Shown here piece by piece: positions 7,376-34,803 of a stretch of 34,803 nucleotides of DNA. This stretch comes from a phage. Below the pieces are notes generated by a model, which was given only the letters and a program-made list of their open reading frames with translations, was not told where the DNA came from and made no database searches. The position numbers and the translations under genes are program-made. The DNA lies in NCBI GenBank assembly GCA_021149145.1, contig GCA_021149145.1_4322.1, one strand, 5' to 3'. Positions within the stretch are counted from its first letter, which is position 1. Every line of letters begins with the position of its first letter.

Positions 7376-8989
7376 GATGCCAGCGAGGCGCATCATCCTC
7401 GATTTAGGGTCTTCTGCAATGTTCAGTACCAGGTTGACAGCCATTGTCAAACAGTCTATCTGGTCATCGTGAACATGTGAATCATCTGCCGTGAATGCCG
7501 CAATCTCCGTTAGCAAGCCATTAAGCCAAGTAGCAGACTCCGGAAGGATTACGTTACCAGCTTTAATCTGCGGCAATGCACTCATTACGCGAGTCAGCTT
7601 ATCGTTATCCGGAACGTACGGCTCGATAGGCGTTCGCATAACCCTTCCGGCTGATTGAATCAGGCCAATACCAGAGGCTTTCTTCTCGATGATGATTTTA
7701 CGAAGGATGCCATCTATCTGATTGGATGCCCTAGCCATCTTCTCGAAATCCAATAACTCAGCCTCGAGCTCAGGAGCTTCAAATTTACCGCGCCGCTGGT
7801 CAAGAAGATAAATCTTCCCATCCTTATAACCCCATAGCTGCATGACGCTAAAGTCGCTGTAACTTTTGGTTGTCATCGCAGTATCAAGGACCATAAACCT
7901 GTAATCGTACTTAGCTGGCGGTCGCAGAGTGTCGCTAATGCGTTGAAGCCAGTCTACGTTAATCAGGTTGCCGCCAAGTGCTACTGGTTCTTGCTGATAC
8001 TGGCTAAGGAATGTATAGCTATCAGAATCCCACATTGCAACCAGGTCGTGAACAGACTCCTTGCCAGGGAAATAGCTATAGTACCTAACACCATCACGCT
8101 CAATATATTCGCTTGATAGAACGTCATCAATGAATTGCTGCTTAATCCAGTCAGGAAGCGTGTCGACGTAATCCTCAGTTACGAGCGCCGGTATCTTAAT
8201 CAAGTCGAAGCTAATACCCATACCGCCATTCATCATGAACCACGTACTATCGTTCACATGAAGGCGCTGTTGGATAGAGATAATCGGCGTCGCCTTTCCT
8301 TTTACGGAGCTCGCCCTACGAGAGCGTATTGTATTCTTTAGCATCATGTGATTGTTAGCGCGAAAAACAGCAGAAAGCATGTCGGCTGGTTTGTCAAAAT
8401 CATCTAACAGTACCGCACCACTATACGAATCGGTTATATATCCACCCCTCGCGCCTGTAATTTGGCCGCCAGTGGCTTTAGAGATTGACTCAAACCTGAC
8501 CTTGCCATAGTCATCCAGGACCTGTAGCTCATCATCCTTACACGTACCAAACTTACATGGGAACAACTCCTGGAACTCAACAGACTTAATTAAGTCGCGC
8601 ACACGCTTGGAGTTACGCTTAACCAGTGAGTCAGCATACGATATATTCAGGTTCCTTACCTTTCTCAACTTAACCATTGAGTAGGCTGGGAAGTGAATTG
8701 AGGCAATCTCTGTTTTTCCGCTACCAGGTGCTATGTTGATGATGGTATCTTTACGCTCACCCGCAATAATCTCATCAATGATTCTGCAAAGGTATTTATG
8801 ATGCCAGTTTGGGATGTACCGCTCTCCCTGAGTTATCTGGAACCACACTCGCAAGAATCCCTCGAAGCTATGAGTGGATATCGCCTTAACCGCCATCTTT
8901 TCTGCTGGCGTCATTTCCTCCCAAACTAAATTAGCCATAATTTCACCAATCCAACCATCACGCCAATTAAGAATCCAGTTGTGAAGCAT
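7370..8989 (-). CDS. terL: terminase large subunit
   Basis: Walker A NIAPGSGKTE, an ATPase/nuclease two-domain size of 539 aa, and a position downstream of TerS. An alternative start is the ATG at 8938 (MANLVWEEM). Confidence 0.85.
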   Translation of the reverse strand: MLHNWILNWRDGWIGEIMANLVWEEMTPAEKMAVKAISTHSFEGFLRVWFQITQGERYIPNWHHKYLCRIIDEIIAGERKDTIINIAPGSGKTEIASIHFPAYSMVKLRKVRNLNISYADSLVKRNSKRVRDLIKSVEFQELFPCKFGTCKDDELQVLDDYGKVRFESISKATGGQITGARGGYITDSYSGAVLLDDFDKPADMLSAVFRANNHMMLKNTIRSRRASSVKGKATPIISIQQRLHVNDSTWFMMNGGMGISFDLIKIPALVTEDYVDTLPDWIKQQFIDDVLSSEYIERDGVRYYSYFPGKESVHDLVAMWDSDSYTFLSQYQQEPVALGGNLINVDWLQRISDTLRPPAKYDYRFMVLDTAMTTKSYSDFSVMQLWGYKDGKIYLLDQRRGKFEAPELEAELLDFEKMARASNQIDGILRKIIIEKKASGIGLIQSAGRVMRTPIEPYVPDNDKLTRVMSALPQIKAGNVILPESATWLNGLLTEIAAFTADDSHVHDDQIDCLTMAVNLVLNIAEDPKSRMMRLAGIK

Positions 8990-10117: not shown

Positions 10118-10193
10118 TGGTGTTCCGCACTGGACTCGAACCAGTAACTAAGACTTAGGAGGTCTTTGCGTTATCCTGTTACGCCAGCAGAAC
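10118..10193 (-). tRNA. tRNA-Arg (anticodon CCU), CCA encoded
   Basis: Hand-folded 76-nt cloverleaf. Acceptor GTTCTGC/GCGGAAC has one G-U pair. D stem is GCGT/ACGC with GG in the loop. Anticodon stem is AAGAC/GTCTT with loop CT-CCT-AA. T arm is ACTGG-TTCGAGT-CCAGT, with discriminator A and CCA. Confidence 0.85.
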
Positions 10194-14816: not shown

Positions 14817-15205
14817 TGACTACTACGATAACCAAAAATTTCATTAGCAACGACAACAAGCTATTTAAAGCTCGCGTTAAAAAGATTCACCAGTGGGTTA
14901 ACGGTGTCGCTGAGGAAGTTGAATTTGAGCAAATCAAAAAAGACGGCAAATGGATCAACCTGGAAGAACGTGGAAAATACATTAAAACCAAAACTCTTTA
15001 CTGCACAAAGGTTAACCATAAGTCTGGCGTTAAGAAAGACTTCAAAGAAGGTAAGCGATACCAGGTCAACATGCATAGCGGACTTTGTCAGTCAACTGGA
15101 TACATTTACGATGAAGATGGCAACGCCTGGCAGCTATATCGCAGCGAAGATGTTGGCTTTTATACGTTGTGTGAAACTTACCACTTTGAGGCTCAATACA
15201 AATGA
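14816..15205 (+). CDS. hypothetical protein
   Basis: 129 aa, with TAATG coupling to the upstream gene. Confidence 0.5.
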   Translation: MTTTITKNFISNDNKLFKARVKKIHQWVNGVAEEVEFEQIKKDGKWINLEERGKYIKTKTLYCTKVNHKSGVKKDFKEGKRYQVNMHSGLCQSTGYIYDEDGNAWQLYRSEDVGFYTLCETYHFEAQYK

Positions 15206-18449: not shown

Positions 18450-18525
18450 GTGATCACCTTTAAATCCTAATTTGTCAATACATAGTGCAAATATCATATA
18501 TTAGCACTTTCTGAATTGTAAGCAC

Positions 18526-18549
18526 AAAAAAAGGGAGCCAAAGGCCCCC
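18526..18549 (-). terminator. rho-independent terminator
   Basis: Minus strand reads GGGGGCC-TTT-GGCTCCC (one G-U pair) followed by TTTTTTT. It lies between the 57-aa ORF and the holin. Confidence 0.6.
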
Positions 18550-18827: not shown

Positions 18828-19363
18828 ATCACATCAATTACTATTTCTGTGGTTCTTTTAATATCACCTTCAATAACATCAATATCAATCTCCCTGGCGC
18901 AGACACCACTAAGATACGACCTACTATCTCCTTCGAAAGTGTATCCATGTCGATGAAGTCTAATTAATGTAACTTCAACACCTTCATCAATTAGTGGCTT
19001 AATCTCACTCGCGAACCCACCATCAGAACAAATGTAGCATCCATCACCAAGTGATTGCGCGAGCCTTTTACCAAAAACATCATCGCCAAAAACTGGCTTC
19101 ATCACTGATTCGCTAATCCAAATCATAAATTCACGAACAGTCATTCCACCAAGAAATTCGTGTGGTGATTCTTTGTACCCTCGGTCATCGTAATTATTAA
19201 TAAATCCATCAAACTCATCGCTTGATAGTATTCCTTTTGCAACATTAAACATTGGTGACTTGAATGAAACCTTATCCTTGCAAATTCCAAGATTAACAAT
19301 GATATCTGCAACTGTATCTTTTCCAGCACCAGGGGGTGCATTAATGATGATTAACTTTTTCAT
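18809..19363 (-). CDS. P-loop kinase, dNMP-kinase-like
   Basis: The start MKKLIIINAPPGAGKDT at 19363 has an N-terminal Walker A with the GKDT ending seen in T4/T5 dNMP kinases. The C-terminus INSTNC is encoded by the box. Confidence 0.55.
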   Translation of the reverse strand: MKKLIIINAPPGAGKDTVADIIVNLGICKDKVSFKSPMFNVAKGILSSDEFDGFINNYDDRGYKESPHEFLGGMTVREFMIWISESVMKPVFGDDVFGKRLAQSLGDGCYICSDGGFASEIKPLIDEGVEVTLIRLHRHGYTFEGDSRSYLSGVCAREIDIDVIEGDIKRTTEIVIDVINSTNC

Positions 19364-21117: not shown

Positions 21118-21369
21118 TCATACAACCTCTTTCAGCCAGTAATCAATTAAATCAGCACTAATTGCTAATTTTTGGTCCAGGTCTGTCATGCACAGATTAC
21201 CGCACGCTGGAGAGTAGTAAATCTGTACCCATTTACCGTCCTTCGTCTTCGCGTTAACATCCACATAGTCAGGTGGAAACCAGTCATCAATAGGTATCGC
21301 TCTAAACTTCTTCCCACTATCACTATGCACTAAATTATAATGCTCAGGCTGAAAATCTAATCCCAACAT
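21118..21369 (-). CDS. hypothetical protein
   Basis: 83-aa ORF. Confidence 0.45.
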   Translation of the reverse strand: MLGLDFQPEHYNLVHSDSGKKFRAIPIDDWFPPDYVDVNAKTKDGKWVQIYYSPACGNLCMTDLDQKLAISADLIDYWLKEVV

Positions 21370-22823: not shown

Positions 22824-24533
22824 TCAATCCTCCATCGTAAATGATTTGTTGGCGATAATATCTTGAGACTTCTGGTTTTTACGGTGTGTGATTCTCAATG
22901 GGGCACGGAATAGATGTGCATTTGTCATAATCATTCTAGCATTACGCAATCTGCCAATTCTGAATGCCTCATTCCTGTTATCGATGTGTGTTGAGCAGAA
23001 AGCCTTCCATTTAACAGAGCAAACGCGATGGTCTGATTCAGGGAAGAATGTTTCATAAGCTCGGAATCTGTCACCACTGTGAGCCATAACCTCATATGAA
23101 GCAATAATCCCTGACTGGTTCTTTGTTAACCCAATCTTGAAGTCATAAACTCGCAACCAGTCCCCCTTACGATACATTTTTCCTGATAACTTAGCATTCG
23201 GGTCTATGAGCATCTCACCACAGCATCTGCAATTCTTAGCTGCAATATCATTCTTCTCACCGCATCCTTTCTTGATGATAGCTTTGGTCTGTGGGTCCGC
23301 CATATCTTCACACAGTATAAACTGAAAGAAGTGCTCGCAACGCTTACCGTCAATTACATTATTACAACGCCGTGCGAACGGAGAGTTCTCATAAGAACAT
23401 GCCGGGCATACCCTAGGTTCATCACCTCCTTTCCTTGATGACTTAAACTTCTGGTCCTGAACTTCTTCTATAATTGGGTCAAAGTAAAGCTCTGCCATAT
23501 CGTCAAGCGTTCCGGCGAAATCGAGAACAACATGGTCTTCTTTTACCATCCCTGAATCCTTGTGTTTTTTCTTAAGAATTCGCATACCACGACCAAGCAA
23601 CTGAATGAGTAGAGTAATGCTACCAACCTTCCTCAGGATAATGCTTGTATCCCACGGGGGGCAGTTTACGCCAGTTGTGAGGCAACCAATCTGAAATATG
23701 AACTTATATTCTCCGTTGGCTGCCTTCTCAAGTATCTCTCTACGCTTCTTCTCACCAGTGGAGTTGGTAACTATCGCCCAAGTAACACCTTCTGGAAGTG
23801 CGGCTGCCGCCTCCTCGCAATGCCGTTTGCCAGCGCAAGTTACCAATGCAGCATTCCTTGTTTCCATAAACTTAGCAGCAAATCTCATTATCTTTTGTGT
23901 CATCGTTTGGTTTTCGTGAATCTTTGCAGCCATCGCATCCATTTCTTTCTTGCTGAAGTCCTTAACCCCATCACTTCCATCAGGAGTGAACTCACTAAGG
24001 TCGTAGCCCAAATCACCAACTTCACCGTAGACAGTAGGAACAACGAACCCCAAGTCAACAAGGTAGCTGGTTGGCACTTGCATTACAGTTTTGCGCCAGA
24101 ATCCACGGACATTTGGGTTACTAACTACAATGTGGTCGTTGTTACGGTACGGGCTACCAGTTAACCCAAAGATACGAAGTTCGCGACCGTACTTCTCCCT
24201 GCATCGACGCTTCATTTCGGTAATGATTAACGTGTATTGCGCGCGACCAGTGCCAAGAAGCCCGGTATTCACACCATCCTTAAAGACCATCTCACCATTC
24301 TTCGTGCTCATCTGCTCGAATGTTTCCTCATTCTCTTCAGCTTCTACGATATCCATATGGTCCACCATGTGGCAATTATGTGCCACGACCCCGTCAGCAA
24401 TGAAATTATGGTGCTCAGGCATCTCTATATCCCAAACAAGTTCCTTGCCAATTGGTGAGATGTCTTTAATTTTGCTTGATTTTGTATTCCACGCCATTTT
24501 CCATGTGCTTACTAATTCTCTTAAAAAACTCAT
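22824..24533 (-). CDS. intein C-terminal splicing segment plus helicase C-extein (SF2 motifs III-VI, Zn ribbons)
   Basis: Residues 31-53 (ELVWDIEMPEHHNFIADGVVAHN) are intein blocks F/G, followed by Cys54-HMVD. Later motifs are GLTGSP, LTTGVN, QLLGRGMR and the CxxC clusters CPACS...CNNV, CGEK...CRCCGE. The frame is closed upstream by a stop at 24552-24554. Confidence 0.75.
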   Translation of the reverse strand: MSFLRELVSTWKMAWNTKSSKIKDISPIGKELVWDIEMPEHHNFIADGVVAHNCHMVDHMDIVEAEENEETFEQMSTKNGEMVFKDGVNTGLLGTGRAQYTLIITEMKRRCREKYGRELRIFGLTGSPYRNNDHIVVSNPNVRGFWRKTVMQVPTSYLVDLGFVVPTVYGEVGDLGYDLSEFTPDGSDGVKDFSKKEMDAMAAKIHENQTMTQKIMRFAAKFMETRNAALVTCAGKRHCEEAAAALPEGVTWAIVTNSTGEKKRREILEKAANGEYKFIFQIGCLTTGVNCPPWDTSIILRKVGSITLLIQLLGRGMRILKKKHKDSGMVKEDHVVLDFAGTLDDMAELYFDPIIEEVQDQKFKSSRKGGDEPRVCPACSYENSPFARRCNNVIDGKRCEHFFQFILCEDMADPQTKAIIKKGCGEKNDIAAKNCRCCGEMLIDPNAKLSGKMYRKGDWLRVYDFKIGLTKNQSGIIASYEVMAHSGDRFRAYETFFPESDHRVCSVKWKAFCSTHIDNRNEAFRIGRLRNARMIMTNAHLFRAPLRITHRKNQKSQDIIANKSFTMED

Positions 24534-25514
24534 CTTGTGCCGACCTCGTTGTTATTGATACTGAGTAAAGCTCTCTCTTTTTCTTGCCGCCAATATAGCT
24601 TCTAACCTTAACTCCGTCATTAGCAATAAATGCTATTAGCGCATCAACTACTGATTGAACTTCACTCCTGCTAAATGATTCGGTGTGGATTTCTACAACC
24701 CTCTTCCCTGAGCTTACAGTGCAATGACCATCATCACCAAAGTAAGCAGCCCAACCAACTGGATCAAGCTCTCTGCATATCTTTCCAATATCGTAACCAT
24801 CCTTAGAATTTCCGTACTTATCAGCATATGAATCCAGAACTTTCGTACATGATGTTGATACGCAAAACCAGTTGTCGCCAAATCCAGGGTTTTTCTTCTC
24901 CCTGTATCTAGGGTTTAGTTTTGCAAACCTTTCAACCTTGCTTAGTGCGTGCTCCTTATTTCCAATATTCCAAGATAGCCTATGCGTTCCTTTTTCTGTA
25001 TTTTTAATCAAGCAACCATCACCAGCCATTGCCGCAAGAATGTTTTGATGTAAAAAGTCATCAACCTCCATTGATGGGTTGACGGTTGAATTATGATGCC
25101 CCGTTCTGTAATCCAAATAGAAATCGAAAGGGTTCTTAAGAAGTACGCCTAACCCCTTGCTTGAATGCGGCATAACTTTTTCACCACAGCCACACTTGCA
25201 CGCAGGAGCTTTTTCGTAAATTTGTCCTGCGAGCCGTCTAGCGACAGATTCATCCCAATACGAAGTTTTCCCGCTCCTACCCAGCAGCCGTTCGAATAAA
25301 GTTTGTGTGTACTCGTGCATTTTATTTCCTCTCCGCTTTCTAATTTAATTGATGATACATGTCTTACACCATTAGTAAAAACTCTTTTTGGCTTATGATA
25401 GAAGTAATCACCAGTGCTTTCGTTTATGCATTTTATTTTATGATTGATAAGGTCTTCGCTATCAATCCTCATCATCCCTGAATCGGTGGTTATCATCGTG
25501 TCTCCAGTTAAGCA
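24375..25514 (-). mobile_element. intein element in helicase motif II (1140 nt = 380 codons)
   Basis: Bounded by AIDE|CLTGDTMI (Cys codon 25514-25512) and VVAHN|CH (Cys codon 24374-24372). The two exteins are in the same frame. Confidence 0.8.
24466..25320 (-). CDS. double-motif LAGLIDADG homing endonuclease, separate ORF nested in the intein
   Basis: Carries LAAMAGDGCL and AAYFGDDGHC and ends ...VEYKIKQN. It has its own ATG 7 nt after GGAGAGGA. Its frame differs from both intein halves, and it is closed upstream by a stop at 25345-25347. Confidence 0.75.
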   Translation of the reverse strand: MHEYTQTLFERLLGRSGKTSYWDESVARRLAGQIYEKAPACKCGCGEKVMPHSSKGLGVLLKNPFDFYLDYRTGHHNSTVNPSMEVDDFLHQNILAAMAGDGCLIKNTEKGTHRLSWNIGNKEHALSKVERFAKLNPRYREKKNPGFGDNWFCVSTSCTKVLDSYADKYGNSKDGYDIGKICRELDPVGWAAYFGDDGHCTVSSGKRVVEIHTESFSRSEVQSVVDALIAFIANDGVKVRSYIGGKKKRELYSVSITTRSAQDEFFKRISKHMENGVEYKIKQN

Positions 25515-25958
25515 CTCATCTATCGCGATAACAGCAGGAGCATAGTCACCAAGCCCCTTAAACAAGCCGTTAGCAGCCGTTCCCTCACTAGCCACTATGG
25601 TTGGATAGTAAACTGATTTAACGTTAAGGCCAGCGCAATAGACGCTATTACGGATGCCGAAATTACGAAGTTCCTCTGCGTTCTGGCTGACAATCTCTGA
25701 CTGGCGAGATAGGACCATGTAAGGAAGGCCAAGCTGTTCCATTCGTTTCCCAATCATGGCGAGAATAATCGTCTTGCCAGCCGAAACCGATAGGTCTGCT
25801 ATGAATGGCGCTTCGTACTTGCCAATAGCCTTTCCGATTGCGTCAAATGTCACGCACTGGAATGGGTATGGTGTGATTTCTCCGAACTGATAATCATTTT
25901 GAATCTGCTTGATTTTATCTTGGTCAAAGTTTGCTACTAAGCGTTCTACTGGAAGCAT
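25149..25958 (-). CDS. helicase N-extein (motifs I-II) plus intein N-terminal splicing segment
   Basis: Walker A DLSVSAGKT, then AIDE followed at residue 149 by block A CLTGDTMI and block B CTSTHKL. It stops after 121 intein residues. Confidence 0.75.
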   Translation of the reverse strand: MLPVERLVANFDQDKIKQIQNDYQFGEITPYPFQCVTFDAIGKAIGKYEAPFIADLSVSAGKTIILAMIGKRMEQLGLPYMVLSRQSEIVSQNAEELRNFGIRNSVYCAGLNVKSVYYPTIVASEGTAANGLFKGLGDYAPAVIAIDECLTGDTMITTDSGMMRIDSEDLINHKIKCINESTGDYFYHKPKRVFTNGVRHVSSIKLESGEEIKCTSTHKLYSNGCWVGAGKLRIGMNLSLDGSQDKFTKKLLRASVAVVKKLCRIQARG

Positions 25959-26044
25959 TTTAAATATCCTGATAGTTCTTTAGTTCGTTGCATTGATGTA
26001 TAATAACAGCCATAGAACCCATTGTTTAACAAAAAGTGCTATTG
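25959..26044 (-). promoter_or_regulatory. promoter-leader cassette copy (helicase operon) in a divergent region
   Basis: Minus strand reads AATAGCACTTTTTGTTAAACAA, 16 nt, TATTAT, then ACATCAATGCAACGAAC... and the ATG. The box ends 10 nt before the ATG of the divergent HTH gene. Confidence 0.55.
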
Positions 26045-26054
26045 AGGTAATGAG

Positions 26055-26528
26055 ATGTGTAAAATTGACAAGCGAACTATTAACGGCAATAACGGGACCG
26101 TCCGCACGCAAGACAAGAAGCAACGCAAGCGACCTTCAGGCTACTACGTATTGAAAGATGAAGTAAAGGCTGGTCTACGCGCGCGTCTGGAAATGATTCT
26201 TGATTTCTACGGCACGAAAGCCAATATCGCCAAGCAGTTAAATGTATCTCACCAGACTGTAGAGCAATGGTTTAATCGCGGGATGATTTCGGCTCGAGGG
26301 GCTCAGAGAGCGCATAATGCGTACAAGCGAAATAAGGAAGGGTTCCGAGCTACATTCTGCCGACCAGACCTGCAATTCGACGGTAACGGAAAGCCGCTAA
26401 CACTTCGATGCAAGAAACGCCATATGCTTCGCGTAGTTACCGAGGCAGAACTAGCAATAAAACCACCCTGTCGACCGTGGCGCAAGAATAAGATTGCTAA
26501 CGAAGCAGCACGAAAAGCTAAAGGGTAA
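26055..26528 (+). CDS. HTH DNA-binding protein (Cro/YdaS-like), basic
   Basis: Contains GTKANIAKQLNVSHQTVEQWFNRGMIS. The N- and C-terminal regions are Arg/Lys-rich. Confidence 0.6.
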   Translation: MCKIDKRTINGNNGTVRTQDKKQRKRPSGYYVLKDEVKAGLRARLEMILDFYGTKANIAKQLNVSHQTVEQWFNRGMISARGAQRAHNAYKRNKEGFRATFCRPDLQFDGNGKPLTLRCKKRHMLRVVTEAELAIKPPCRPWRKNKIANEAARKAKG

Positions 26529-26579
26529 GTGATTGGATGTGCCATAATAGGCACATCCTTTTTTATTGGAGAGAAGAAA

Positions 26580-27059
26580 ATGAACTGGCATGATTATTTT
26601 TACTATGTAGATGGCAAATTGCATTGGAAGATTAGCACTGCAAGACGTGTTAAGGTTGGCGATGAGTGCAACTCACTATCTACATCTGGCTATTACAAAG
26701 TGTCTGTTAATGGCTTTAGGACTTATGTACATAGAGTTGTGTGGGAGATGTTTAATGGATAACTTCAAAATGGCGACTACATTGATCATATAAACCATAA
26801 CAAATTAGATAACAGAATAGAAAACCTAAGAGTAACAACAAATCAAGGTAACTCAAGAAATTGCAAGCTTAGCGTTTTATCAACAACTGGTTATTGTGGA
26901 GTGGCAAAGCTAAATCACGGAAAATTTAAGGCTCACATCACGGTTGACGGCAAGCAGCTACACCTTGGTAACTTCGATACTCCAGAACGGGCGTATAAAG
27001 TAAGAATTGAAGCAGAGAGAAAATACAACTTTCACGAAAATAACGGGTTAAGCAAATGA
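26580..27059 (+). pseudogene. HNH (HNH_3-type) plus AP2-domain homing endonuclease with an in-frame TAA at 26760-26762
   Basis: The ATG follows GGAGAGAAG. Translation is MNWHDYFYYVDGKLHWK...HRVVWEMFNG-TAA-LQNGDYIDHINHNKLDNRIENLRVTTNQGN...GVAKLNHGKFKAHITVDGKQLHLGNFDTPERAY, all in one frame. The stop overlaps the primase ATG (ATGA). Confidence 0.65.
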
Positions 27060-27979
27060 ATTACGATAAGAATGAAGTTATACCTAAGATGGCCGGATTG
27101 TGGAAATCATTTTATGTAAAGGAACTTGGTTGGAATGATAGACACATAAGTAAGAAGCACGGACCATGCCCATGCTGCTTTGGCACTGACAGATTCAGAT
27201 TTACCGACGAAATAGGCAGTGAAAAAGGAAATGGCGCGGCAGTTTGTTCGAAATGCGGAAGTGACTCCGGTATAGGATGGGTCATGAAGTGCACCGGATT
27301 GTCCTTCGCCGATTCAGTAAATTTGCTTGGTGACTGGCTGAACTTAACACCAATTGAGGTTATAGTTAAAGCAAACAAGCAAGCCTCGAGAACTAAGCGT
27401 TACAAAATGGGCGCTCAAGTCGACCATGAGAAAGTCCTGGAGGTTATGGAGAGAACTAAGAGAGTGGAATCGAGTCCACTCACGACATACGAGGGTATTT
27501 ATGACGCGTTTGGTTTTGATGTTGGTATAGCTAAAAATGGTTCAATGATTCACGCAATCCCTTGTTCGATGGTTTATGAAGATGGGCTTAGTGATGAGTT
27601 CTGTAACGTAATGTTTATCGATGAGGATTCAAATGTTAAGTTCCTTGCTGGTGATTACACTCGTGATTCTGTTTCCGTTATTGGTTCTAAGCAGGATGAT
27701 AGTTATACTTATGTTGTTGACAATTATATTGATGGCATGCGTGTTCACCTTGCTACTGGTGGGCGCGAAGTGTTTGTTGCTTTCTCCTGTTACAATATGG
27801 AGATGGTTATCCACCGCGACAAGTCAAGGAAGTTCAGAATTGCTTGCCGTGATTCTGATAGCGATATACTCGCCGTTGCTGACGATAGGGGTGTTGATGT
27901 TGTAGTTCCTAATGACGGTGAGTCATTTAAAACAGGCATACGAAAGAAAGTGTACAAAGCAAACGACTTGCTAAACTAG
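27056..27979 (+). CDS. DNA primase (primase-helicase-type zinc ribbon N-domain)
   Basis: Contains HGPCPCCFGTDRFRFTD...CSKCG and sits in the replication gene neighbourhood. Confidence 0.65.
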   Translation: MNYDKNEVIPKMAGLWKSFYVKELGWNDRHISKKHGPCPCCFGTDRFRFTDEIGSEKGNGAAVCSKCGSDSGIGWVMKCTGLSFADSVNLLGDWLNLTPIEVIVKANKQASRTKRYKMGAQVDHEKVLEVMERTKRVESSPLTTYEGIYDAFGFDVGIAKNGSMIHAIPCSMVYEDGLSDEFCNVMFIDEDSNVKFLAGDYTRDSVSVIGSKQDDSYTYVVDNYIDGMRVHLATGGREVFVAFSCYNMEMVIHRDKSRKFRIACRDSDSDILAVADDRGVDVVVPNDGESFKTGIRKKVYKANDLLN

Positions 27980-28000
27980 CCTCCTTCGGGAGGTTTTTTA
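27979..28000 (+). terminator. rho-independent terminator
   Basis: CCTCC-TTCG-GGAGG followed by TTTTTT, immediately after the primase stop. Confidence 0.75.
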
Positions 28001-28026
28001 TTGCCTGAAAGATGGTAGAATGAATT

Positions 28027-28046
28027 TTGGCAATTAGTGCTACTTT
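28027..28046. promoter_or_regulatory. palindromic box copy in reverse orientation, in the tailspike 5' region
   Basis: TTTGGCAATTAGTGCTACTT lies 19 nt upstream of the tailspike ATG. Read on the minus strand it matches AGTAGCACTAATTGCCAAA, but no minus-strand gene follows. TGGTAGAAT (extended -10) lies upstream on the plus strand. Confidence 0.45.
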
Positions 28047-28064
28047 ACAAATGGAGACTTTACA

Positions 28065-30518
28065 ATGGCAATTTATGACTTAGGAACAGCATCGCTAGCC
28101 TCAAATGGCGAGGTTACTGGCGTAGGTACTACATGGAAAGCACCTCTTACACTGATTCGTGTAGGTGCTACTATCATTTTCAAAACCAGCCCTCTGAAAA
28201 TTTACACCATCTCTGAAATCATCAGCGATACTCAGGTTAATGTTTATAATCCAAGTTCTGAAACTGTTCCCGCTGGTACTGGTTACGCAATTCTTGCTCA
28301 TGATGGAATTACTGTTCAGGGGTTGGCGCAGGATGTTGCGGAAACATTGCGTTACTACCAGTCAAAAGAGACTTCTATTGAAAGTCTACTGCAATTTATT
28401 GGTCAAGATACTTTTGATTGGCCTCGTCTTGAACAACTGGCAACTCAGTCAACTACCGGAGCTGCCGAGGCGCTTGCTAGTCAGATCTCTGCCGCTGAGA
28501 GTGCCTCTACAGCGGTAGGTGCTAGCAATAACGCACAAAATTCATATAACAGGACGGTTGCAGCAATAAATGCGGCTGGAAATACAGCGGCTGTTGCTTA
28601 CTTTGCTGATCACGGAATAGGTAGCACGACAACGCCATTTCTTACCTCTTTAGATTGGCAAACAATGCAATTTTGTTCCGGAGGTCGTTATCAGTGCACA
28701 CTTAGGGATATGTTAAACACCCCAAAAGAAATTAGTTCAATGTTTCCGGTTTCAACAACTCCTATTTGTATTGATGTTATTGCAACTAGGGGTGTTAATT
28801 CGGCTAGTGTATTAAGGTTATCTCCGTCTACTGGGTCAAACTCAAATTTTAGGATTGCAGATGTCACAATTTCTGGTGCGACTGGATCTAGGGTTTTTTA
28901 TGTAAGGGAAGCACTAAGCTTGCCTGGCGGTGATGCTGCAACTGGTGGAGCAAGCGCGTCAAGGGTTAGGGGGTTGCTTGATGTTTACTCAAAGGGTGAG
29001 GTGTTATCAATTTTAAATACAGATTCAAAAAAAAGCACATCAAGCTATGGCGGCTCAATATCTTCAGCAATAGAAACCGCTGGCGATGGCGGGTCGGTAG
29101 TTATAGGCCCGGGAACTTATGAGAGTAATAACTACTCCTTTGCTGGCAGGAACATATCAGGCTCTGGATATAATACCGTAATAAGTGTTAAACCTTTTGA
29201 AACCGGACTCACATCAACGCTATCGGTTCCGCACTGGAGGCAAAAGCATTTATCGGATTTGCAGTTTACAGGTACTGCAATACAAGGTAATAACGGCTTT
29301 CAATTCCCGGATGACCCTTATGCTGGAAGGGTTGTATTGGATAGGCTTTACTTCAATGACCTGGATGTTGGTATAAGGAAAAATGCTGGCAACATTGGAA
29401 ATACCTACAGAAACGTAAGTGTTAGAAATGCGAATTACGGGTATAGAGCAAAAGCTCATGACAAAATGCATATAGGATCGGACACTTTATACGGATACCA
29501 CTCAGATACAATCTCTCAATATTCAGTAATGCTAGATGCGACAAGCACAAGTAGCGCAACGAACCATGGCGCTGGAGGAATTGGTGGGTGGTGGATTAGG
29601 GATTCAATAATGGAGGACTCTGCTGGCGGCGGTATAAGGTTAAAGAATAAACCTGGAGATTGCCCAACATCACCTTGCGGATTGTCTAACGTATGGTTTG
29701 AAGCGATAGCAACTGGGGGAGCAGTTAACGTAGGTGAGGGAGCTGAACTCCCAAGGGTTTTGAAGCTCATCGATACGTCCGTTTTCTTTGCTGAGCATTC
29801 TTATATTAATAACATTGAGTTATCAAATTCAAACCTTGTAACTTATGGGTGCAGGTTTGATAACGCTGATGGGCGCCAAAGTTTCTCTCTTGATTCGAAC
29901 AGTATTATTTTTGCTAAGGATGCATACCTGAATGGATCTTCAACATCAAACGTTATAGTTGAGTCGCTGGTATCACAGACAGCCAAGATAACGGGTACAT
30001 CTGACTTATCTGTTAGAGGATATGTTACTAAAGGTCGAGTTTTTAATCCAGATTCCGGAACTGTTTTAGTCAGGAGGCCTTTTGGTACTGGTGGGAGCAA
30101 CTTTGGTGGAACAGCGTCGGCAAGTGAAGGTCCTGATACAAGGGGTATACACTCGCTATCATCTGGATACTACGAATTGCTTGGTGCGGCTCAGTACGAA
30201 TTGATAAATGGTGCCTTTAATATAACCGCTGGCAAATGGTATGTTTGGGGTATCTCTGCAAACAGAATTCAAGGTGGTGCTGATGGTGTTATCCGTATTT
30301 TTGGTAGAGCATCTTTAGGGCAGGTATTCACTGAGGGCGGTAAGTGGGTTCACACATTTGGAGTTGCTCAGGCTTCAGTCTCTGGCACTGCAAACCTGCA
30401 TATCAACCTTAATGGGCTACCTGGTATGGCATTAAGTCTTGCTGATTACTTCGTTGTAGAGTTCGATAACCAAAGAGACGCTTTAATATTTGCCAACTCA
30501 AGGATGGCGCTTCAATAA
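28065..30518 (+). CDS. tailspike / tail fibre with a probable parallel beta-helix (depolymerase-like) domain
   Basis: 817 aa. It has an N-terminal domain of about 110 aa (MAIYDLGTASLASNGEVTG...AILAHDGITVQGLAQDVAETLRYYQ), an Ala-rich linker, and Gly/Asn/Ser-rich repeats (GSVVIGPGTYESNNY, NISGSGYNTVIS) typical of pectate-lyase-fold spikes. Confidence 0.6.
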   Translation: MAIYDLGTASLASNGEVTGVGTTWKAPLTLIRVGATIIFKTSPLKIYTISEIISDTQVNVYNPSSETVPAGTGYAILAHDGITVQGLAQDVAETLRYYQSKETSIESLLQFIGQDTFDWPRLEQLATQSTTGAAEALASQISAAESASTAVGASNNAQNSYNRTVAAINAAGNTAAVAYFADHGIGSTTTPFLTSLDWQTMQFCSGGRYQCTLRDMLNTPKEISSMFPVSTTPICIDVIATRGVNSASVLRLSPSTGSNSNFRIADVTISGATGSRVFYVREALSLPGGDAATGGASASRVRGLLDVYSKGEVLSILNTDSKKSTSSYGGSISSAIETAGDGGSVVIGPGTYESNNYSFAGRNISGSGYNTVISVKPFETGLTSTLSVPHWRQKHLSDLQFTGTAIQGNNGFQFPDDPYAGRVVLDRLYFNDLDVGIRKNAGNIGNTYRNVSVRNANYGYRAKAHDKMHIGSDTLYGYHSDTISQYSVMLDATSTSSATNHGAGGIGGWWIRDSIMEDSAGGGIRLKNKPGDCPTSPCGLSNVWFEAIATGGAVNVGEGAELPRVLKLIDTSVFFAEHSYINNIELSNSNLVTYGCRFDNADGRQSFSLDSNSIIFAKDAYLNGSSTSNVIVESLVSQTAKITGTSDLSVRGYVTKGRVFNPDSGTVLVRRPFGTGGSNFGGTASASEGPDTRGIHSLSSGYYELLGAAQYELINGAFNITAGKWYVWGISANRIQGGADGVIRIFGRASLGQVFTEGGKWVHTFGVAQASVSGTANLHINLNGLPGMALSLADYFVVEFDNQRDALIFANSRMALQ

Positions 30519-30546
30519 AAAAAGCCCCGAAAGGGGCTTTATCTTT
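30519..30546. terminator. bidirectional terminator between the tailspike and SSB
   Basis: AAAAAA-GCCCC-GAAA-GGGGC-TTTATCTTTT. Confidence 0.7.
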
Positions 30547-30548
30547 TA

Positions 30549-30977
<429 letters not shown>

Positions 30978-31017: not shown

Positions 31018-31668
31018 TTAGAATGTATCGATTTCTTGAGATTGTACTTCAACTTTTTCTTCTTGAGCGGGCTTTTGTGCAACCTGCTTAGGTTTTGCTG
31101 GGTTAAAGCCGCTAGCTGCATTGGCCTGAATCTCTGCCTTGCGCTCGATAATGTGAGGCTCAAGCACTAACCAGCCGGCTGAATCAAGTGACTGCTTCGC
31201 CTCTTTGTAAACATTACGGAGGTCATCAAGAGTACTGCACTTAGCCAAGTCTTTCTTGAATGAGTTGATGCTTTTAACTGCTAACTGACCATCATCATCT
31301 GCCTGGCTTAAACCTAACGCCGCTGTGATTGCGTAACGGCGAGCGTATGTAAGTGATGACCCATAACCTTGAGCATCTTGCTTACTGATTGGGACTATGG
31401 TCAGGAAACTAACCCACTCTCCAGATTCTGCATGGTAAACTGTTGTTTCAACCTTAATACGAGTGCTTACATCATCATCAATCATCGACTGAAACATCAC
31501 CAGTCCGCTATCAGCCAAGCCTGGCTCTACAGCTGCTAAAACATCATCTAAAGTAGCGTACTTGTTCTTGAGGTGCGAGTTCTGCTTTGACTTTTCAGCC
31601 TTTGCAAACTTTGATTTAGCCTCGAATAACGCCTTCAATACTTGCTTGTTTTGCTCAGAAGTTTTCAT
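31018..31668 (-). CDS. erf: Erf-family single-strand annealing protein
   Basis: The ATG at 31668 (MKTSEQ...) follows the cassette leader. It contains KNKYATLDDVLAAVEPGL and GYGSSLTYARRYAITAALGL, comparable to the P22 Erf core. The track start at 31710 lies inside the promoter. Confidence 0.7.
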   Translation of the reverse strand: MKTSEQNKQVLKALFEAKSKFAKAEKSKQNSHLKNKYATLDDVLAAVEPGLADSGLVMFQSMIDDDVSTRIKVETTVYHAESGEWVSFLTIVPISKQDAQGYGSSLTYARRYAITAALGLSQADDDGQLAVKSINSFKKDLAKCSTLDDLRNVYKEAKQSLDSAGWLVLEPHIIERKAEIQANAASGFNPAKPKQVAQKPAQEEKVEVQSQEIDTF

Positions 31669-31744
31669 TCCCCATCTCTCTTTCGTTTCGATGGGGTAAT
31701 GATACCCCACCTGTTAATTTTGTCTTTAGCAATTAGTGCTATTT
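31669..31744 (-). promoter_or_regulatory. promoter-leader cassette copy (best consensus match)
   Basis: Minus strand reads AATAGCACTAATTGCTAAAGACA, 17 nt, TATCAT, then TACCCCATCGAAACGAAAGAGAGATGGGGA and the ATG. The TAG in the box is the exonuclease stop. Confidence 0.65.
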
Positions 31745-32710
31745 TAGAAGTTCTTGATACTGCTTACTTACCCACTCAGGAATCATCAAATCTTGCTCTG
31801 TAATTCCATTACTGTATCCAGGCCACTCATCAAGTTCCTTGCACTGCTTGTAAACAGCCAGAGCCTCTAAATATTGTAAGCGCCCAATGCGAAGCTGCTC
31901 ATCTGTAAGTGTGTAGCACATAGGTAAGTAGGGCTCTGTTTTCTCCTGAGCCAGAAGTCGAACCACAACCTTACGCTTTTCGTTGAATGCTTTAACAAAC
32001 AAATCGCGCTGAAGTGCCATCTTACACAGGTAACCATGGTCATAAGCTGACTTACCAAATCCTCTAGGGCTTGCGTCTGCTGTTGTTTTATAGTCAGTAA
32101 TGTAAACCACTCCATTAACAACATCCACGTGGTCAAGCCGAACCTTAACGCCGCAGCCGAGAATCTCACCAAAGATTGACAGCTCTTTCTGTGCTATTGG
32201 TGAATTAATTACCGCATCGTAAGCCGGAATATTGGTCAGAACTTCTCGCATTGCGATTACCTTGTCGTAATCTTTAGCACTAACCAGCTCCTTGCCACTA
32301 ATTAACGCCTCAGCGCTCTCCTGCTGCTCAATTAACCATTTAACCGGCCAATCCTCGCCAGACTTATACATCATCTCCACAAGCTCGTTATAACCCTTCC
32401 CTGACGTGCCGGAAACGCCAACTTTTTTAAGCGCTGCCGATAAAGCTGTTTTGCTAGTAATCAATCCTTCCACTTCGTCAAAGTCAGTAGCTCGCATGTA
32501 AGTGGAATCGAACACTTCACGTTCTAGCATCATCGTATGTCCCAAAGTGCCAAACTTTAGTGCTGCACTTGAGTTGCTGCGCTGCTTAAATTTCCATTTT
32601 GCTGGAGAAGTAGCAAGAATCTCAGCCAGCGAAGAGCCAGAGATATGGTCTTTCTCTTCGTGATAGGATTCATTTGTTAGCTCGTCGTTCGTATAAACTT
32701 TAAATGTCAT
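31739..32710 (-). CDS. RecE-like PD-(D/E)xK exonuclease
   Basis: Contains LDHVDVVNGVVYITDYKT (D...D-x-K core). It is paired with Erf and SSB downstream. Confidence 0.6.
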   Translation of the reverse strand: MTFKVYTNDELTNESYHEEKDHISGSSLAEILATSPAKWKFKQRSNSSAALKFGTLGHTMMLEREVFDSTYMRATDFDEVEGLITSKTALSAALKKVGVSGTSGKGYNELVEMMYKSGEDWPVKWLIEQQESAEALISGKELVSAKDYDKVIAMREVLTNIPAYDAVINSPIAQKELSIFGEILGCGVKVRLDHVDVVNGVVYITDYKTTADASPRGFGKSAYDHGYLCKMALQRDLFVKAFNEKRKVVVRLLAQEKTEPYLPMCYTLTDEQLRIGRLQYLEALAVYKQCKELDEWPGYSNGITEQDLMIPEWVSKQYQELLK

Positions 32711-34139: not shown

Positions 34140-34437
<298 letters not shown>

Positions 34438-34438
<1 letters not shown>

Positions 34439-34803
34439 TGGCTCAGGGTATCTATATAGACCTTAATGACGGAAGGAATCCAATGACAATTACCTCAGGG
34501 ATGAGGGCGTTAAGCTTCGCTGGAAACTTTAACGTTAATAGTCGTGGCTTTAGTAAGACATTCTCAATTCAGGGAAATGAAGGTGCATCACGTTTTTTAA
34601 TTCCTAATAATGGTGCCTTCAGCTTCAGGCTTGACAGGGGTGTTGAGCTTTATTATATAAGTGGATTTTCATCAACACCTACATCTGGGACAATCTCAAT
34701 AGGTTCAGTGAATGGATATTCTAACAGGATCACGTCATTTTCAGGGACTGTTATTGAGGTCTTGGGGGCATCAAGCGGCCATGGCATATACGTTGCTGAT
34801 AGT
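34438..34803 (+). CDS. hypothetical protein (runs off the right edge)
   Basis: The ATG overlaps the upstream stop (TAATG). MAQGIYIDLNDGRNPMTITSG... stays open to the window end. Confidence 0.45.

Follow-up and report, generated by a model that had tools for sequence, protein, structure and literature searches.

An exchangeable lateral tail fiber unit with an inverted 21-nt repeat at its predicted promoter in a T1-like Drexlerviridae phage

The lateral tail fiber locus and its transcription unit

We analyzed a stretch of 34,803 nucleotides of phage DNA (NCBI GenBank assembly GCA_021149145.1, contig GCA_021149145.1_4322.1), hereafter called the window, in which an open reading frame (ORF) at positions 28065-30518 of the + strand codes for a protein of 817 aa, with its stop codon at 30516-30518. 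As judged from sequence comparisons, this ORF is the gene for the lateral tail fiber (LTF), or tailspike, of a T1-like phage of the Drexlerviridae (Braunvirinae). The DNA of the locus is 89% identical to that of phages AN_ECEAS and ES and ~77% identical to that of JeanPiccard (Bas02), and the LTF protein has 91% identity to its counterpart in phage ES. The sole record with the identical 817-aa sequence is a hypothetical protein from an E. coli assembly.

The LTF gene is located between the gene for primase (27056-27979, + strand; identified by Pfam and PHROG profile searches) and that for the single-stranded DNA-binding protein SSB (30549-30977, - strand). The latter is convergent with the LTF gene and belongs to a recombination operon that also codes for an Erf-like annealing protein (31018-31710) and exonuclease VIII (31739-32710). 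Upstream of the primase gene is that of a helix-turn-helix (HTH) "transcriptional regulator" (26055-26528, + strand; phrog_2856). Annotated relatives have the same arrangement, i.e., regulator, primase, and "lateral tail fiber protein," followed by convergent genes for SSB, a recombinase, and exonuclease VIII, and the primase-LTF-recombination gene order of the window recurs in AN_ECEAS, JeanPiccard, and T1. In the reference annotation of T1, the tail fiber gene ST26 lies between an SSB-like gene and the primase gene, with paired terminators at its 3' end. The original prediction had placed the gene between primase and SSB, convergent with the recombination genes, which both the genes of the window and those of the relatives confirm.

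In all 13 Drexlerviridae of the BASEL collection, the LTF locus is found between conserved recombination genes and primase/helicase genes (PMC8594841, S1C Fig). The same paper describes the LTF gene as conserved at its far 5' end only, which is read there as the virion attachment site (PMC8594841). The window matches this family locus (T1 gp26/ST26; BASEL Bas01-13) in position, strand relationship, flanking terminators, and 5'-only conservation. The position of the gene and its cassette character are published family features and no peculiarity of the window phage, whose LTF differs from others of the Drexlerviridae in its particular C-terminal allele, present at full length in two phage records only. 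The neighborhood of the LTF gene is not strictly invariant, since the recombination genes of Weberviruses sit between those for primase and LTF. Thus, Klebsiella phage NJR15 has the genes for regulator, primase, exonuclease, Erf, SSB, and LTF on one strand (28967-35936), with the LTF gene convergent on the J gene. As the gene orders indicate, the recombination module is inverted or relocated in Weberviruses relative to T1.

The LTF gene is a predicted one-gene transcription unit, in which the terminator of the primase gene is followed by an extended -10 element lacking a -35, a copy of a 21-nt repeat (the box), a Shine-Dalgarno (SD) sequence, the ORF, and a bidirectional terminator. The intrinsic terminator predicted for the regulator-primase unit (27978-27999, + strand; terminator scan, fold -11.8 kcal/mol) is composed of a CCTCC-TTCG-GGAGG stem at 27980-27993, with a UUCG loop, and a T-run at 27994-27999, and it overlaps the primase stop codon (27977-27979). 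We retrieved 80 loci encoding the N-terminal anchor of the fiber and compared their 69 distinct upstream regions. A terminator hairpin of varied stem sequence precedes the LTF gene in all 80 loci, with the promoter coming next, and the relatives keep both hairpin and T-run at that place with different stems (CCTCC/GGAGG, CCCGC/GCGGG, CCCTC/GAGGG, CCGCC/GGCGG). At the other end, a predicted bidirectional intrinsic terminator (30521-30540, both strands; -15.0 and -15.6 kcal/mol, z -4.4 and -4.0, for the two strands) lies in the 30-nt gap between the LTF stop codon and the end of the SSB gene. It is common to the LTF gene and the SSB-Erf-exonuclease operon, and the paired terminators of T1 are annotated at the equivalent site.

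The extended -10 element, TGGTAGAAT, occupies positions 28013-28021 on the + strand. The original prediction had recognized it, one base off, at 28012-28020. It has the TG motif and a 5/6 match to the hexamer, with no usable -35; the consensus promoter scan gives no score to sites of this kind. At the equivalent place, TGnTAnnnT is found in 34 of 35 relatives that carry the box and in all Weberviruses. If TAGAAT is taken as -12 to -7, the predicted start of transcription falls near 28028. The SD sequence GGAG (28053-28056, + strand) stands 8 nt before the ATG at 28065 and is kept by the aligned relatives. With its own extended -10 element and predicted terminators on both sides, the gene fits the stand-alone, terminator-flanked unit proposed at the outset.

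The layout of terminator, T-run, and extended -10 element occurs three times in the window, before the genes for the small terminase (TerS), the holin, and the LTF, which suggests that the three share one promoter class. Because this class is the same as that of the small terminase and lysis genes, late expression of the LTF is probable. In the lysis cassette, the promoter (18497-18540, - strand) is composed of a terminator, TGCTTACAAT, and then AAAGTGCTAATAT; a half-box-like GTGCTA is present just after its -10.

Modules of the fiber protein and their exchange

Searches of Pfam and NCBIfam with the LTF protein yielded no match. PHROG profiles divide it in three, with residues 1 to ~175 matching many tail fiber families, residues 1-322 matching phrog_24092, and residues 325-816 matching another family. 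Among 50,697 phage records, 942 match the protein, most of them over residues 1 to ~111-131 only and two over its full length. In an alignment of 38 homologues, all invariant residues are inside positions 1-99. They fall in the attachment module (residues 1-100; 28065-28364, + strand), in which a small beta domain (residues 1-78) leads into the first part of a helical neck. An AlphaFold2 model of residues 1-330 shows the beta domain at 1-78 (pLDDT ~85-90), a long helix reaching to residue ~182, and a second beta domain at ~190-290. The modeled helix presumably forms a trimeric coiled-coil neck. A fold search with the N-terminal model (pLDDT 70) returned no significant neighbor, the best E value being 0.04.

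Residues 1-172 match the N termini of the depolymerases DpK2 (PDB 7LZJ) and Depo32 (7VYV) with an E value of 2e-32, in agreement with the conserved N-terminal attachment module of ~110 aa foreseen in the original prediction. We infer that the fiber attaches to the virion via this anchor. DpK2 and Depo32 are capsule depolymerases of Klebsiella Weberviruses, also members of the Drexlerviridae, and their anchor and neck are homologous to those of the window LTF, whereas their beta-helix has only ~10% identity to it. Their substrate is the K2 capsule, which is not inferable for the window LTF. The next part of the protein (residues 101-324; 28365-29036, + strand), comprising the helix and the intermediate beta domain, is common to a subset of relatives only.

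The C-terminal module (residues 325-817; 29037-30518, + strand) was modeled by AlphaFold2 with a pLDDT of 90.1 as a right-handed parallel beta-helix of the pectin-lyase fold (residues ~344-654), followed by a C-terminal beta-sandwich (~664-800). Its Foldseek matches (E value of 7e-9) include the K2-2 and Sf6 tailspike proteins, and the last ~150 residues resemble CBM22/CBM4 modules. The expectation of a beta-helix enzyme-type domain after the anchor is thereby borne out. The proposal that structure would also assign the depolymerase family stood for the fold, a beta-helix of the pectin-lyase type, and failed for the activity, since hydrolases, lyases, and epimerases are found among the structural neighbors at similar Z scores and 8-15% identity, making enzyme class and substrate not assignable. 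The invariant acidic residues D513, E517, E546, D599, and D610 (full-length numbering) are candidates only for catalysis. The fiber probably binds a surface polysaccharide as primary receptor, most likely the O-antigen, and perhaps cleaves it. For the Drexlerviridae, the BASEL paper states that the O-antigen side fiber role "has never been directly demonstrated" (PMC8594841). The C-terminal module is the exchangeable part, which would recognize the receptor and probably cleave the glycan.

The same module occurs, at 42-49% identity, behind N termini of the P22 head-binding type (PF09008), of PF18668, and of the T7 tail fiber type (PF03906), and also in a Kayfunavirus and in phage Bp4. P22-like, T7-like (Kayfunavirus), and G7C-like podovirus tailspikes have 35-49% identity to the C-terminal 480 aa of the LTF. 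In contrast with these podovirus proteins, here the module is grafted onto a siphovirus (Drexlerviridae) anchor through the neck and the intermediate domain.

Both protein and DNA comparisons point to exchange. Of 126 proteins sharing the anchor, 111 cease to resemble the window protein somewhere in residues 100-199, and 6 share sequence up to residues 300-319. The C-terminal module begins at residues 330-339 in 37 of 51 cases. At least seven other C-terminal types are found behind the same anchor, including fibers with an S74 chaperone and pectate-lyase-like, GDPD, PF25670, and PF21882 types. In the DNA, relatives are homologous from the primase gene through the promoter, and the homology breaks at 28363-28381 (codon ~100-105) in many of them, with secondary break points at 28516-28525 (codon ~152) and 28993-29001 (codon ~311). 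It returns at 30509-30519, exactly at the stop codon/terminator, which constitutes the right boundary of the exchanged segment. These alignments indicate that repeated recombination has swapped everything from codon ~100 to the stop codon. The locus was originally described as a replaceable cassette, with a comparison across relatives suggested for domain swapping after residue 110; the comparison makes the exchange clear in protein and DNA, with breaks at codon ~100. Composition gave no sign of recent transfer, as the GC content is flat (0.41-0.46) across the LTF gene and its flanks.

The break points at codon ~100 and at the stop codon/terminator mark graft sites for a new receptor-binding module on a T1-like chassis. 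The window LTF itself is one more allele of a well-described host range cassette, of use mainly for host range prediction and engineering.

An inverted copy of the 21-nt repeat at the predicted fiber promoter

The box belongs to a family of 21-nt repeats with the consensus aaATAGCACnnnTTGnTAAAA, of which phage TLS has 21 copies, co-directional with transcription and ~76 nt before start codons (Kropinski et al. 2024, PMC11447400). The repeat is also present in T1, Rtp, and Rogue1 (PMC11447400). In the window, we found 13 copies with at most two mismatches to AATAGCACNNNTTGNTAAA, compared with 0.15 expected by chance. Fifteen of 17 window copies face a gene start ~55-85 nt downstream. The exceptions are the LTF copy and a weak copy at 21151. 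The latter (21151-21169) has three mismatches, lies inside an ORF (21118-21369), and was not found in JeanPiccard, so that chance or decay probably accounts for it.

The geometry of the repeat was measured in four genomes, namely, the window, T1, JeanPiccard, and NJR15, which together have 69 copies with at most two mismatches. A -10-like hexamer begins 19-21 nt after the box in 61 of the 69 copies, and exactly 20 nt after it in 50 of those, placing the partial dyad TAGCAC-N3-TTGnTA at about -42. The best match to a -35 is merely 2-3/6 in 48 of 63 copies. A site at about -42 of promoters with a poor -35 is of the activator type, we infer from this geometry. The terminator hairpin of the upstream gene is often packed between box and -10, as seen at 26504-26565 and in other cassettes of the window and at 38952-39001 and 41955-42007 in T1. 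At 26535-26558 the loop of the hairpin contains a CATAAT hexamer, and in other cases the T-tail also serves as the -10, so that each intergenic spacer amounts to a terminator within a promoter.

Six copies break the spacing rule, and three of these belong to the LTF gene, in the window, JeanPiccard, and T1. The LTF copy of the window is at 28026-28046 on the - strand (TTTGGCAATTAGTGCTACTTT on the + strand, AAAGTAGCACTAATTGCCAAA on the - strand). Compared with the repeat consensus, the - strand sequence of 28026-28044, AGTAGCACTAATTGCCAAA, deviates at 2 of the 15 specified positions. By sequence it is thus of the same family as the standard repeat of TLS and T1, from which it deviates in orientation, start codon distance, and -10 spacing. 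It follows the extended -10 element by 5 nt and precedes the ATG by 18-20 nt, with its dyad center at 28035, which places it from about -2 to +17 relative to the predicted start, centered at about +8, a position of the repressor type. Its opposite orientation was noted in the original prediction and holds against 15 of 17 copies in the window.

This placement is shared. Among the 69 distinct upstream regions, 35 have a box 33-43 nt before the LTF start codon, in several subfamilies, and the box is inverted in all 35. Its distance after TGnTAnAAT is 5 nt in Braunvirinae, 6 nt in the T1 group, and 11 nt in another clade. The conserved blocks upstream of the LTF gene are the T-run, the extended -10 element, the box, and the SD sequence, and the spacers between them have diverged. 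The inverted, promoter-proximal repeat is a small regularity that has apparently not been described so far.

As the box points leftward, it might start antisense transcription that enters the primase gene at its 3' end, a possibility also raised in the original prediction, and a CATAAA- or TATAAA-like sequence adjoins the terminator T-run in some relatives. However, at the LTF gene of the window, JeanPiccard, and T1, the box has no -10 hexamer at the 19-21-nt spacing. The nearest -10-like hexamer is 22-23 nt away and lacks the T at -7, and it is absent from the window, which reads GGCAAT, and from T1. Moreover, the conserved cassette leader is missing, and what lies leftward is the primase terminator. 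We rejected this possibility as very improbable.

The conserved half-box GTGCTA(T/C)TT could instead be the extended -10 element of a second LTF promoter (GTGCTATTT). Indeed, TGCTATTTT or TGCTACTTT fits TGnTAnnnT, and an inverted box upstream of the T1 major head gene, 16 nt after TTGACG, puts TGcTATTAT in the -10 position. Against this, the box of one clade abuts the SD sequence (GTGCTATTTAGGAGG), such that a start 7 nt after that -10 would remove the ribosome-binding site. The hexamer of the window, TACTTT, is a 3/6 match, and the conserved distal half of the box would be left unexplained. A second promoter was therefore discarded as improbable.

We also considered that the box might act in the 5' untranslated region as an RNA hairpin affecting translation or stability, given that its partial dyad TGGCA-N5-TGCTA can pair as a 5-bp stem. 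The predicted fold (-3.9 kcal/mol, z -0.12) is no better than that of shuffled sequences, however, and the variants TATCA/TGCTA and TAACA/TGCTA break the pairing with no compensatory changes. There was no match in Rfam, and at most sites the box is upstream of the transcription start. A hairpin function appears extremely unlikely and was dismissed. By inspection, neither a sigma-54 site, for which the GG-to-GC spacing is 2 nt too short, nor an IHF site, whose consensus is unmatched, accounts for the sequence.

A candidate regulator and the surroundings of the locus

The best candidate for a factor recognizing the repeat would be the conserved HTH protein encoded two genes upstream of the LTF gene, at 26055-26528. 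This putative trans-acting protein of 157 aa (phrog_2856, E value of 4e-81) is the product of the first gene of the regulator-primase-LTF strand block. Its Pfam matches to Cro/CI/HTH families are weak and below the curated thresholds. The protein is present in every lineage examined, including Webervirus (it is Bas02_0036 in JeanPiccard and gp23 in T1), and its HTH region and a C-terminal motif are invariant. As both the regulator and the box system occur in every lineage, their co-occurrence is uninformative on a link between them. A copy of the repeat belonging to the leftward promoter of the helicase gene (26025-26043, - strand) ends 11 nt before the regulator ATG, and a box abuts the regulator start codon in all four genomes (at 36443 in T1, 29628 in JeanPiccard, and 35948 in NJR15), which by analogy is an arrangement typical of autoregulated regulators. 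In the same interval (25999-26043), a rightward TATAAT (25999-26004) and a leftward TATTAT (26005-26000) overlap back to back as -10 hexamers, and the box follows 19 nt to the right of the pair. Competition for this DNA would be expected between the helicase promoter and a possible promoter of the regulator gene. After the LTF promoter, this is another site with a box between a possible promoter and a gene read rightward.

We propose that a factor bound to the inverted box at about +8 would obstruct RNA polymerase at the LTF promoter and thereby damp or delay fiber synthesis. Taken as a whole, an explanation in which a modular LTF unit, at its usual family position and probably expressed late, is damped or delayed through a box-bound HTH protein has in our estimate a probability of about 60%. 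The regulatory step is its weakest link. By itself, a repressive role of the LTF box, as expected in the original prediction, is plausible, at somewhat less than even odds.

Several observations weigh against this proposal. The Webervirus LTF promoters have the extended -10 element without a box, and those of TLS-like phages have TTGCAT-17-CATAAT, also without a box. Both groups keep the repeat system and the regulator, which shows the box to be dispensable for fiber expression. In T1, the TerS, major head, ST40, and J genes have boxes that separate a -10 from the start codon (8340-8396, 15060-15140, 18833-18872, and 25000-25043), sites at which JeanPiccard and the window have none. Some of these boxes are inverted and some, as those of TerS and J, are co-oriented, and position rather than inversion may therefore be what matters. 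If the box represses at its usual position too, the LTF gene would be co-regulated with the other cassettes rather than counter-regulated. The function of the repeat is listed as an open question, with stoperators, enhancer sites, or UP-like elements suggested (PMC11447400). In the literature on T1-like phages, we found no transcriptome, transcription start map, binding protein, or expression timing.

The lack of a box at the LTF promoters of TLS-like phages and Weberviruses, despite their carrying the repeat system, would also suit an inherited remnant, e.g., of a former divergent promoter, without a present function in LTF expression, for which the extended -10 element would suffice. A single ancestral event could account for all inverted copies. 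Nevertheless, the box is nearly intact in relatives whose LTF anchor is only ~50% identical and in which the spacers and the distance between -10 and box (5, 6, or 11 nt) have changed, and between the T-run and the SD sequence only the -10 and the box are conserved. We consider a mere remnant unlikely.

The proposed repression at the LTF promoter might be part of a wider circuit, in which the HTH protein would serve as a single-protein temporal switch acting through the 21-nt repeat. From sites at about -42, it would switch on some 15-20 promoters without a -35, which serve small accessory genes as well as those of replication and recombination. From sites downstream of a -10, it would silence its own gene and restrain the LTF gene and, in T1, also TerS, J, and other late promoters. 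Replicating genomes would then titrate the protein, releasing the late genes. This extension is tentative, and we regard it as rather unlikely. If true, no other "negative" site of the circuit would be as widely conserved as the inverted LTF box.

Phage regulators acting from two positions are exemplified by lambda CI at OR, and the Mu activators Mor and C are centered near -43.5 of promoters without a -35. The likeness to CI and to Mor/C is that one type of site is near -42 of -35-poor promoters and that the same site occurs downstream of the -10 elsewhere, including at the regulator's own gene. No homology of the HTH protein to CI, Mor, or C was found. For T1-like phages, which have no known transcription program, the function of the repeat is an explicitly posed question. 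The strict -42 geometry, the inverted LTF copy on the transcript start, and the box abutting the HTH gene make for a testable hypothesis with positive and negative control sites.

Beyond the recombination operon, the window contains a gene for a lipoprotein (34208-34438; phrog_4281) and, after it, the beginning of a truncated phrog_1265 gene (34438-34803). By their position, these correspond to the superinfection exclusion gene and the terminal receptor-binding protein (RBP) locus beside the J-like tail tip gene. In AN_ECEAS and JeanPiccard, the J-like gene is found ~4.7-5.8 kb past the LTF stop codon, just beyond what would be the right end of the window. Two statements of the original prediction have to be corrected accordingly: the window has more receptor-binding-type genes than that of the LTF alone, as these two genes lie where the "bona fide RBP locus" is placed, and the LTF gene's distance of over 20 kb to the morphogenesis operon arises artificially from the place where the contig is cut.

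Other features set the window apart from its relatives. Its replicative helicase gene (22824-25958, - strand) is interrupted into an N-terminal part (25149-25958) and a C-terminal part (22824-24533) by an ORF resembling a LAGLIDADG homing endonuclease (24466-25320; phrog_11023), and the C-terminal part has its own box cassette at 24619-24637. The helicase gene of JeanPiccard is a single uninterrupted 1995-bp gene. Relative to AN_ECEAS and JeanPiccard, an insertion of ~470 bp separates the regulator and primase genes (26530-27055) and bears an ORF for an HNH-endonuclease-like fragment (26529-26762; phrog_99). Lastly, a tRNA-Arg gene with the anticodon CCT is located at 10118-10193 on the - strand, and the tRNA-Arg of JeanPiccard in the corresponding region is annotated as reading AGA.

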